DNA from: a virus
Taxonomy: Duplodnaviria > Heunggongvirae > Uroviricota > Caudoviricetes
Strand: one strand, 5' to 3'
IMG/VR virus record: IMGVR_UViG_2636415906_000003
Span: 1 to 32,747 of that record
DNA: 32,747 nucleotides
Shown piece after piece: positions 1,312 to 31,739 of this stretch. Below the pieces are notes generated by a model. It was not told the DNA's origin and did no database searches. It saw only the letters and a list, made by a program, of their open reading frames with translations. The position numbers and the translations under genes were made by a program. The first letter of the stretch is position 1. Each line of letters opens with the position of its first letter.

Positions 1312-1326
1312 TGGTGTCCCCTGCAG
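1312..1326. repeat. Prophage att core copy (attL-type): 15-bp exact direct repeat of the 3' end of tRNA-Arg argW
   Basis: tggtgtcccctgcag at 1312..1326 is identical to 31665..31679, the 3' terminal 15 nt of the tRNA on the minus strand. Flanking bases differ on both sides, so the repeat is exactly 15 bp. Confidence 0.75.
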
Positions 1327-1399
1327 ACATCTACTTGAAGCGGCAGGGGATTGATTGGAATGGTGTTTTTTAGATGTGAGAAATATTTTACCCGCTATT

Positions 1400-1600
1400 T
1401 TACCCATTGGCGCGGCTTAAGAGCTTATTTTTGAATTCACAATGGTCACGATATAACCATCTTGCTCGCCCGTGGATAACTTTGGCTTTAGGCAGGTCGC
1501 CGGACTTAATCCGGTCATAGATGAAGGTCTTACCGAAGCCAGTATCAGCCATGATGAATTTCAAATCAACCAGTGAATCAGGCTGTAGTTCGTGTTGCAT
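1400..1600 (-). CDS. torI: Prophage excisionase / recombination directionality factor, TorI/AlpA-like
   Basis: 66-aa ORF at the prophage end opposite the integrase. The translation (MQHELQPDSLVDLKFIMADTGFGKTFIYDRIKSGDLPKAKVIHGRARWLYRDHCEFKNKLLSRANG) matches my memory of E. coli TorI, the KplE1 excisionase. Confidence 0.7.
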   Translation of the reverse strand: MQHELQPDSLVDLKFIMADTGFGKTFIYDRIKSGDLPKAKVIHGRARWLYRDHCEFKNKLLSRANG

Positions 1601-1619
1601 GAGTGCTATCTCCGAATAG

Positions 1620-1635
1620 GGAATCGAACCTGCAA
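1620..1635. repeat. Second tRNA-derived segment: 16-bp exact copy of the argW T-arm region (equals 31679..31694)
   Basis: ggaatcgaacctgcaa is identical to the tRNA segment that directly follows the 15-bp core in argW. The flanking sequence does not fold as a tRNA. Confidence 0.6.
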
Positions 1636-1645
1636 ATCAGGCAAT

Positions 1646-1666
1646 AAAAAAACCGCATTGATGCGG
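1646..1666 (-). terminator. Rho-independent terminator on the minus strand, between ORF 1726..2070 and torI
   Basis: Hairpin ccgcattgatgcgg (1653..1666) directly followed on the minus-strand transcript by a run of 7 U (plus-strand A run 1646..1652). Confidence 0.4.
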
Positions 1667-1725
1667 CGATGGTAGGTCTGGATATCTTGATAAATGAAAA
1701 TGCCTCATCGAGTGTGAGGCTGTGG

Positions 1726-30345: not shown

Positions 30346-31503
30346 TCACTCCACCTTTTCATCAATCCAATCCGCCCACCATTGCATCATTTCTCTGCGC
30401 TTTTCTAGATACTGAGCATGGTTGTAAATCCCACGCACAGATCCGCCGTTGGCATGTGCCAGTTGCACTTCAATAGCGTCAGCAGGCCATTCGTGCTCGT
30501 TCATAATTGTGCTGAATTCATGCCTGAATCCGTGACCGCTTTCCAGACCCTCATAGCCGATTTGTTTGATCACAAGCAGCACCGCGTTCTCGCAGATCGG
30601 CTTCTTCTTATCGTTGCGCCCGGCAAAAACAAACTCTGATACTGGTTTGGTGATTGAGCTTAGCGTAGTGAGAAGTTCAACCACCTGGTCTGACATCGGG
30701 ACCACATGAATCTTGCGGCCCTTCATCACACTGGCGTCGATAGTGATAATCCTGTTTTCAAAATCGACGTTCTTCCATTGCATGGAGCGAAGTTCTTTTG
30801 TTCTGAGGGCTGTGTAGCGTAAAACTTTGGTTGCAATGAGCGATACGATACTTCCTGAAAATGTTGCCAGTGCTTTGTTGAATGCCGGGATCTGGTCTGC
30901 AGGAAGAAACGGGAAGTTCTTCTTGCGGTATCCCTTCATGGCGTCAGCAAGGTCAGGTGCTGGGTTATATTTAGCCCTGCCGGTGACAATAGCGTAACGG
31001 AAAACCTCGCCGCATCTTCTACGTGCTTTGTTGGCTCGCTCCATTGCACCGCGATCTTCAAATCTGCGGATTACTTCCAGCAGTTGTATCGGCTCAATAT
31101 CCTGAATTTCAAGGCCGCCGATGATAGGTAAAATGTCGTCATCAAACATTTTTGCAAGTTCAGTTGCATATCCTACTGACCAGACTTGCTTCTTGTGCTC
31201 GTACCATTCCTTGTAAATGGCACTAAAGGAATTGTTGTTAGACGAAGCCTTTTTCGCTTTTACCGGATCGATGCCAACCGAGATGTCTTTCCTCGCAGTC
31301 CATGCTTTATCCCTTGCCTCCTGCAAAGTCATTAGCGGATATTTTCCTACGGTCAGGATTTTCTCCTTACCGTCAATCTTGTAGCGAAGCTGCCATACCT
31401 TTTTCCCTGACACAGGGACATAAAGGTACAGGCCATTACCATCGAGTAGGCGGTATGGTTTTTCTTTCGGCTTGGCTGCTTCAATCTGCTTAACGGTGAG
31501 CAT
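30346..31503 (-). CDS. intS: Tyrosine integrase, IntS/P4-family
   Basis: Adjacent to tRNA argW; the 385-aa product from ATG 31503 (MLTVKQIEAAKPKEKPYRLLDGNGLY...) matches my memory of E. coli IntS. An in-frame ATG at 31539 would add 12 codons. Confidence 0.85.
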   Translation of the reverse strand: MLTVKQIEAAKPKEKPYRLLDGNGLYLYVPVSGKKVWQLRYKIDGKEKILTVGKYPLMTLQEARDKAWTARKDISVGIDPVKAKKASSNNNSFSAIYKEWYEHKKQVWSVGYATELAKMFDDDILPIIGGLEIQDIEPIQLLEVIRRFEDRGAMERANKARRRCGEVFRYAIVTGRAKYNPAPDLADAMKGYRKKNFPFLPADQIPAFNKALATFSGSIVSLIATKVLRYTALRTKELRSMQWKNVDFENRIITIDASVMKGRKIHVVPMSDQVVELLTTLSSITKPVSEFVFAGRNDKKKPICENAVLLVIKQIGYEGLESGHGFRHEFSTIMNEHEWPADAIEVQLAHANGGSVRGIYNHAQYLEKRREMMQWWADWIDEKVE

Positions 31504-31664
31504 GGGTAAAAATCCGGTGGGTAAAATTATTTTATCCACTTTTTACCCGTCATGGAGTGCGGCTGTCAACGATCTGACGCGAACCATTACGAACTGTGAA
31601 TCTACGGAAGGCTTGATATTCAGTGGATTTTGCGGACTGGTACGGATGGGAGCGAACTGATAAA

Positions 31665-31739
31665 TGGTGTCCCCTGCAGGAATCGAACCTGCAATTAGCC
31701 CTTAGGAGGGGCTCGTTATATCCATTTAACTAAGAGGAC
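31665..31739 (-). tRNA. argW: tRNA-Arg (anticodon CCU)
   Basis: Read from the minus strand: acceptor stem, D-arm, anticodon loop CUCCUAA (anticodon CCU), T-arm GGTTCGATTCC and a 3' CCA; 75 nt. Confidence 0.9.

Follow-up and report, generated by a model that had tools for sequence, protein, structure and literature searches.

Why should the leader of a prophage excisionase gene repeat a piece of the tRNA gene in which that prophage sits? The question is raised by IMG/VR record IMGVR_UViG_2636415906_000003, of which positions 1 to 32,747 were analysed (the window, 32,747 nucleotides in all). The window contains a P22-like prophage in argW. The integrase gene intS adjoins argW, and the excisionase gene torI lies at the opposite end of the prophage and is transcribed towards att. 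The features of the recombination module are as follows.

31665-31739, minus strand: argW, tRNA-Arg(CCT), located with ARAGORN and by exact pattern matches of the core and the T-arm block.
30346-31503, minus strand: intS, heterobivalent tyrosine integrase (Pfam Arm-DNA-bind_3, Phage_int_M and Phage_integrase).
1400-1600, minus strand: torI, excisionase (recombination directionality factor) of 66 aa, an ORF annotated as torI in E. coli genomes.
1312-1326: att core at the torI-side junction (attR), a 15-nt identity with the 3' end of argW, with an exact duplicate at 31665-31679.
1385-1393 and 1397-1405: two direct ATTTTACCC repeats, presumed arm-type sites of IntS, overlapping the torI stop codon.
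31570-31657: five TorI sites in the int-side arm, whose sequence fits the published description; their plus-strand cores are CGATC 31570-31574, CGAAC 31580-31584, CGAAC 31590-31594, CGGAC 31633-31637 and CGAAC 31653-31657.

This module is that of KplE1, HK620 and Sf6. The same core, TGGTGTCCCCTGCAG, stands at both prophage ends and occurs exactly twice in the window; with up to two mismatches allowed, shuffled sequences gave a mean of 0.01 matches and none reached two. TorI lies opposite the integrase, and the integrase lies next to the tRNA with TorI and arm-type sites between the two. The core, the excisionase (100%), the integrase architecture, the five GTTCG-type TorI sites and the arm-type repeats are all the same as in the known module, from which this one shows no difference. 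The TorI product (1400-1600, minus strand) is 100% identical to PDB 1Z4H, the 'Tor inhibition protein', and the Pfam domains of IntS are arm-binding, core-binding and catalytic. Published TorI sites have the cores GTTCG, GATCG and GTCCG, three of them 2 nt apart and two 12 nt apart (PMC2951348), and the same spacing is found at 31570-31657. Arm-type sites contain the motif TAAA (PMC2951348); the arm repeats are kept as GGGTAAAAT, in two copies 3' of torI, in all TorI-clade loci, and the HK620 record annotates an attP repeat at the equivalent of 1385-1405. By the naming used for KplE1, attL is the junction on the tRNA/int side and attR the one on the torI side (PMC2951348), so that the left end of the window, labelled attL in the first-pass annotation, is attR.

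Many E. coli genomes have an uninterrupted argW site with the same left flank. Positions 1200-1760 are matched at 100% by E. coli ACN001, and the right flank of the prophage matches yfdC in E. coli records. The left chromosomal flank (1-870) appears, by its sequence, to be a LacY-family-like permease ORF, versus dsdC in K-12, and because of this difference the core identity is 15 nt here and 16 nt as published. A 43-aa ORF on the minus strand (1276-1407), the counterpart of HK620 hkaB and Sf6 gene 17, spans the att core, so its C-terminal part switches between attP and attR forms; it has no Pfam match.

The core is not the only part of argW that recurs at the torI end.

1620-1635, minus strand: 16-mer TTGCAGGTTCGATTCC (torI sense), comprising the T-stem 5' strand, the T loop and 2 nt of the 3' strand of argW.

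The block, GGAATCGAACCTGCAA, occurs exactly twice in the window (1620-1635 and 31679-31694), and 100 shuffles gave 0 matches. The 15-mer and the 16-mer adjoin in argW, where they share one base, and lie 293 bp apart at the torI end with the whole of torI between them. The first-pass annotation had described this arrangement and judged the 16-bp match unlikely by chance, and it was right on both counts. It had also proposed a comparison with the known phages of the family: HK620, Sf6 and KplE1 all carry the identical 16-mer, and positions 1312-1667 are 97% identical to the HK620/Sf6 attP-hkaB-hkaC regions and about 95% identical to K-12 KplE1. Since the 16-mer is in the same place in all three, it arrived with the attP-torI module and did not arise locally. 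The refuting case named in the first-pass annotation, known attP sequences of the family without the block, fails accordingly. The leader T-arm copy is thus present in known sequences too, and PMC2951348, PMC3509656 and PMC8787464 do not mention it.

Is the block half of a split attachment site, or a second copy of tRNA sequence? A survey of 301 loci with TorI relatives was drawn from GTDB genomes, IMG/VR and GenBank phages, and gave 142 distinct upstream sequences and 42 excisionase-gene clusters (less than 10% nucleotide divergence), with hosts that include Escherichia, Salmonella, Serratia, Citrobacter, Pantoea, Erwinia, Edwardsiella, Tatumella and Rouxiella. Wherever the downstream end of a relative could be read and placed, its core is TGCAGGGGAC(A/G)CCA or differs little from that (TGTAGGG in L018, TGCAGGGAAC in the Edwardsiella clade), and these relatives therefore form one argW-targeting family.

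In many of them the phage sequence beside the core reads TTCGATGTA-TGCAGGGGACACCA, where the tRNA reads TTCGATTCC-TGCAGGGGACACCA. The relatives thus keep a T-loop-like TTCGAT beside the core and a copy in the leader as well, and in two loci (L013 and L016) the leader copy continues into CCTG, overlapping the start of the core sequence. The likeness to the T loop in both places means two copies, and the earlier description of tRNA homology "split in two" around torI does not hold; the E. coli clade only seems split because its core-adjacent copy has drifted to GTAGATGTC. The insertion of torI into a contiguous 30-nt tRNA block was rejected on the same observations. The six consensus bases 5' of the conserved part of the block, TTCCAG, match the tRNA's TTGCAG at 5 of 6 positions, an agreement to be expected if the block descends from the T-arm and only its 3' part is constrained. 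The block is very probably a tRNA-derived second copy and not a part of a split site.

Which part of the tRNA was copied becomes clearer from the anatomy of the core.

1313-1331, plus strand, presumed anatomy: half-site GGTGTC 1313-1318, 7-bp overlap CCCTGCA 1319-1325, phage-side half-site GACATC 1326-1331.

In relatives, the T of TGCAGGG is the first base of the identity with the tRNA, and several clades show a perfect inverted repeat here, GGTGTC-TGCAGGG-GACACC, in which 6-bp half-sites enclose 7 bp. Inverted half-sites around a 7-bp overlap are the standard core anatomy of tyrosine recombinases such as the lambda-type integrases. From this we infer that TGCAGGG (tRNA sense; CCCTGCA on the plus strand) is the overlap segment. 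The tRNA sequence GTTCGATTCC, which directly precedes TGCAGGG in argW, would therefore be the left (B) half-site of attB, the position of the overlap being taken from the family comparison.

A second element at the core had also been pointed out, as an inverted repeat flanking it.

1317-1324 and 1343-1350: 8-bp inverted repeat, TCCCCTGC and GCAGGGGA, with an 18-nt loop; one arm overlaps the core overlap segment.

The repeat is there as described, but it does not flank the core: one arm is inside it and the other lies 18 nt into phage DNA. It is kept across the family, the loop measuring 18 nt for the TorI clade and 24 nt for the g341c clade, and compensatory changes in the arms (L018, GTAGGGGA/CCCCCTAC; L120, GCAGGGAA/TTCCCTGC) show that it covaries with the core. 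One of its arms repeats the putative overlap segment in inverted orientation. The repeat is a real element, which could form a hairpin, as DNA or as RNA, 3' of torI.

The copy in the leader stands among several signals just upstream of torI.

1608-1613, minus strand: torI ribosome-binding site GGAGAT, conserved at 7-8 nt ahead of the ATG in almost every leader.
1619-1629, minus strand: conserved leader motif GTTCGATTCCC (torI sense), whose first 10 nt are the tRNA sequence immediately 5' of the presumed overlap.
1645-1667, minus strand: intrinsic-terminator-like hairpin (1652-1667) with a T run, found by terminator scan, which ends the upstream ORF114 module.

In torI sense the order is the hairpin 1667-1652 with its T run, then ATTGCCTGATTTGC, AGGTTCGATTCC, CTATTC, the GGAGAT at 1613-1608, 7 nt and the ATG, which places the block between the upstream terminator and the ribosome-binding site.

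The survey shows that the 3' part of the block is strongly conserved. Among 22 lineage consensus sequences, GTTCGATTyCC reaches 2.0 bits at 10 of 11 positions (1.06 at y), and in the same consensuses the neighbouring bases on its 5' side, like the spacer that leads to the ribosome-binding site, reach 0.2-1.0 bits. The sequence GTTCGATT(T)CC stands upstream of the gene in 24 of the 42 xis clusters, usually starting 29 nt before the ATG; it is kept in about 22 lineages and at least six host genera, and it is still there in lineages with other arm-type repeats and in those whose Xis shares just 37-52% identity with TorI. The pattern GTTCGATTCCC-N5-GGAGAT occurs in at least 119 places in IMG/VR, and a TorI-family gene follows in 117 of the 119 listed, the other two being a real tRNA and a coding sequence. 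The motif is usually 5-7 nt 5' of the ribosome-binding site; in four clades the spacing is 5, 8 or 14 nt and not 7. In two clades the distance from motif to core is 304 bp and 324 bp, which is uninformative about helical phasing.

The motif is dispensable, being absent from 18 of the 42 lineages that use the same core. In L015 and L262-L274 it is missing by an apparent clean deletion, and other lineages without it have non-homologous leaders. Most lineages have a single copy; tandem copies were seen in the clade of Erwinia phage Midgardsormr38 (L003, about 2790-2840, period 16 nt) and in L130 (period 13 nt). Near-identical 75-nt leaders (L273 and L291; L247 and L292) are found on xis genes that are 39-47% identical to TorI in one case and 80-82% in the other. 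Because such leaders join very different xis genes, there is a mosaic junction at or near the start codon, and the conservation of the motif could partly reflect recent exchange, with leaders recombining between divergent xis genes.

Altogether the motif is real, inherited and strongly conserved among the surveyed argW phages, and for that reason it is probably a control site and not half of an att site. That it is a functional cis element we regard as highly probable. It would be an apparently undescribed conserved element in the excisionase leader of a well-studied module.

What might act through it? The motif contains the TorI pentamer GTTCG (1625-1629; CGAAC on the plus strand), which leads us to consider autoregulation: the excisionase would control torI by binding the leader of its own gene, on the model of intS, which it represses through sites I4 and I5. 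The pentamer is a perfect match to the core of the published site, and TorI is a proven repressor (PMC2951348). In some clades the leader reads CAGTTCG, which is the consensus of the att sites, and the tandem copies of the Erwinia phages would suit a TorI operator as well. TorI binds cooperative arrays, however, and the leader has one site only; the GTTCG core of the 8-bp site class is there, and phased arrays are not. Nothing in the five att sites corresponds to the invariant ATTCC. Moreover, the motif does not track the specificity of Xis. In four IMG/VR loci (L257, L260, L264 and L266) the int-side arm past the core has (C)ATTACC in place of the KplE1 GTTCG-type sites, which implies that the DNA specificity of the excisionase switched within a family whose tRNA target is unchanged, yet these loci have GTTCGATTCCC in two distinct leader types. 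Because a clade with ATTACC sites keeps the motif, TorI binding is not the general explanation, and a TorI operator seems unlikely to us.

By the same token the ligand would be one that stays constant across clades. A factor of this kind fits best, and the integrase must in any case recognise the sequence on the tRNA gene; these two points make IntS the leading candidate. The proposal would run as follows. Only the 3' part of the block, GTTCGATTCC(C), would be kept by selection. This sequence abuts the inferred overlap in attB and would thus be the half-site that the core-binding and catalytic part of IntS has to contact on the tRNA gene, so that the leader motif would be an isolated copy of the left half-site of attB with no crossover segment. 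IntS, constitutively present at a low level in lysogens, would sit on this lone half-site in the leader of torI, perhaps handed over from the arm-type sites that lie immediately 3' of the gene. Once bound, the integrase would hold down the excisionase expression that comes from read-through, up to the point where strong early-left transcription prevails.

Tentatively, then, the leader motif may be a site bound by the core-binding domain of IntS that gates torI expression, a reading of the sequence which we hold plausible and short of probable. The literature offers some ground for it. IntS is made constitutively at a low level and both IntS and TorI are repressors, and what controls excision is the expression of the excisionase gene, itself still unexplained (PMC2951348). 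TTCG changes to TTAG only rarely in the leader (4 of 93 distinct leaders), in parallel with a common TTCG/TTAG alternation at the phage core half-site. The T-arm of the host tRNA-Arg, too, is unchanged between E. coli and the Edwardsiella clade.

Several observations count against IntS. A lone half-site is normally a weak target for an integrase. The leader strictly keeps a tRNA-like TCC end and never has the GT(A/C) end of the phage half-site, and simple integrase binding does not predict this. The loss of the motif in the 18 same-core lineages and the share of its conservation that could come from leader exchange weigh on the same side. In the sole published test of a core site, a mutation of the attL core left IntS repression of intS unchanged (PMC2951348).

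The motif also lacks the rest of a core. The leader block holds the left half-site only, and the next 7 nt, CTATTCG, share 1 of 7 positions with TGCAGGG. A full pseudo-attB made of the motif, 7 nt and GAGATA was considered and rejected, because its right side is no more than the ribosome-binding site and because four clades have a spacing of 5, 8 or 14 nt; since the spacing between motif and ribosome-binding site varies in this way, there is no conserved full pseudo-core.

Sites of this kind have partial precedents. Like the B half-site among the lambda Int core half-sites (C, C', B and B'), the leader motif is the tRNA sequence that abuts the presumed overlap, but it stands alone, without an overlap or a conserved inverted partner, 293 bp from the core and in a gene leader. 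Int of phage P2 reportedly autoregulates by binding its own transcript at an att-like sequence (Yu, Barreiro and Haggard-Ljungquist, 1994). That case likewise has an att-like sequence outside att used by the recombinase for control, with the differences that the phage and the integrase are others, the target gene is int and not the excisionase gene, and the sequence bound is RNA and not DNA. In the argW module itself, TorI and IntS as repressors of intS show that sites for recombination proteins overlap control regions (PMC2951348). These published cases concern the integrase promoter, and control of the excisionase through an att-like site is our proposal here. The further step, that the integrase reads a copy of its own chromosomal target half-site in the excisionase leader and that its occupancy directly gates the directionality factor, is suggested by the sequence but rather doubtful.

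The motif might instead act in the torI mRNA, where GUUCGAUUCC would serve translation or stability as an anti-Shine-Dalgarno sequence (UUCC:GGAG) or as a mimic of a T-loop. Its fixed position, 5-7 nt 5' of the ribosome-binding site in most clades, speaks for this, as does the UUCC:GGAG pairing that RNAalifold finds in 17 of 17 sequences; GATTTCC variants could make 6 pairs with GGAGAU, and the motif fits the T-loop consensus. The same RNAalifold consensus has only 4 pairs and -1.2 kcal/mol and shows no compensatory changes, however, and the leader of the window folds with z = -1.8. The T-stem 5' strand varies (CAGG, CAAG, CCTG, TCAG), which leaves no T-arm hairpin, and an anti-Shine-Dalgarno role leaves the invariant GUUCG unexplained. 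A T-arm RNA hairpin or a TruB/TrmA-type substrate was rejected, the stem bases being unconserved and showing no covariation. As a tRNA-like RNA the leader does not qualify: ARAGORN finds argW only, Rfam gives no match, and the stem bases vary without compensation. Whether the motif follows variation in the host T-loop is a comparison without power, because in the Edwardsiella clade (core TGCAGGGAACGCCA; attL junction read on IMG/VR contig L439) the tRNA-Arg differs from that of E. coli in its acceptor stem but has the same T-arm. All in all, we think an RNA element improbable.

It is also conceivable, at low probability, that the motif is a neutral relic, a 'boundary sequence' of an old rearrangement near a tRNA-like att that is carried along at a mosaic junction. 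The block does lie at the edge of the torI module. Right of about 1632 (1632-1790) another mosaic module begins, a terminator with ORF114 that is common to HK022, HK97 and phage 434 and annotated as a terminator in them. The HK022-type module ends at about 1632, and bsq2 of Sf6, a "boundary sequence" in that record, ends at the equivalent of 1643. The near-identical leaders attached to xis genes 47% and 82% identical to TorI (L273 and L291) fit such a relic too. Neutrality does not sit well with a motif far better conserved than the adjacent spacer and the bases 5' of it, or with its retention across about 22 lineages and at least six host genera. The lambdoid boundary sequences (Sf6 bsq) are likewise conserved islands at mosaic junctions, and bsq2 covers torI and its leader; bsq2 is 241 bp long and defined by phage-phage similarity, whereas the motif of 10-11 nt is a sharper island inside it. 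HK022 (L301, 700-860), HK97 and phage 434 have the terminator-ORF114 module and use lambda-type integrases with non-tRNA sites.

The block overlaps an annotated promoter, and the first-pass annotation had placed the second tRNA piece in the presumptive promoter region of torI.

1632-1644, minus strand: TTGC-N5-TTGC box, the cII site of a predicted 'integration' promoter in the HK620 annotation.

The location upstream of torI stands, and the block is within the promoter predicted in HK620 and Sf6; the promoter, though, is a prediction only, no sigma-70 consensus promoter was found in 1250-2150, and two terminator-like hairpins (the one above and a second at 1702-1720, also from the terminator scan) lie just upstream. 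A sigma-70 promoter at the block was rejected on this ground. On the HK620 and Sf6 annotation, a promoter activated by cII or C1 would have its spacer and -10 region in the block. Over the equivalent of 1607-1645, HK620 is annotated with a "cII protein" site and a predicted "phage integration" promoter; Sf6 too has a promoter predicted in that stretch, and at the matching position HK022 carries a TTGC-N6-TTGC box of the lambda type. In HK022 this box directly abuts the xis ribosome-binding site, and here about 18 nt that include the motif part the TTGC-N5-TTGC box from it. The spacing of the box here is N5, against the N6 that straddles -35 in cII-dependent promoters of the lambda pI/pRE type. 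Its promoter-proximal TTGC is also the first 4 nt of the 16-mer. The other TTGC, the first, is TTAC in K-12 and in many relatives, which leaves the annotated cII site with poor support. With no -10 or sigma-70 consensus, with clades outside E. coli that lack the box yet have the motif, and with a promoter there that would transcribe torI too, there is little to recommend the cII promoter as the reason for the motif.

Scarcely credible is a secondary recombination site at which exchange between the 16-mer and the tRNA yields an excision product that leaves torI behind, as the first-pass annotation had wondered, for although the two share 16 bp of exact identity in direct orientation, the block is without the overlap segment TGCAGGG, the predicted chromosomal junction is present in 0 of 5,426 complete E. 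coli genomes, and a torI-less attP was not found in 50,697 phage records.

One prophage has lost the region by deletion. In E. coli F404 (L302, NZ_OY754364.1), positions 2497-2525 correspond to 1312-1635 of the window with 294 bp deleted, core base 8 being joined to the leader. The junction is TGGTGTCC|GAATAGGGAATCGAACC, apparently formed through TCC microhomology. The deletion takes out torI, the arm repeats and half of the core, and this prophage should be locked in and incapable of excision.

In the argW family there is always some integrase, at a low level, so that excision hinges on the timing of the excisionase, and control of this gene is the missing piece (PMC2951348). Should the motif prove inert, the idea of a split att site is corrected all the same, and no alternative route of excision is in use in the E. 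coli genomes screened. If the leading reading is right, a conserved leader element of 10-11 nt that is the integrase's target half-site would give a handle on excisionase control that can be tested by mutation. It would be a new feedback link between integrase and excisionase, bearing on how xis is controlled where int and xis are transcriptionally uncoupled.
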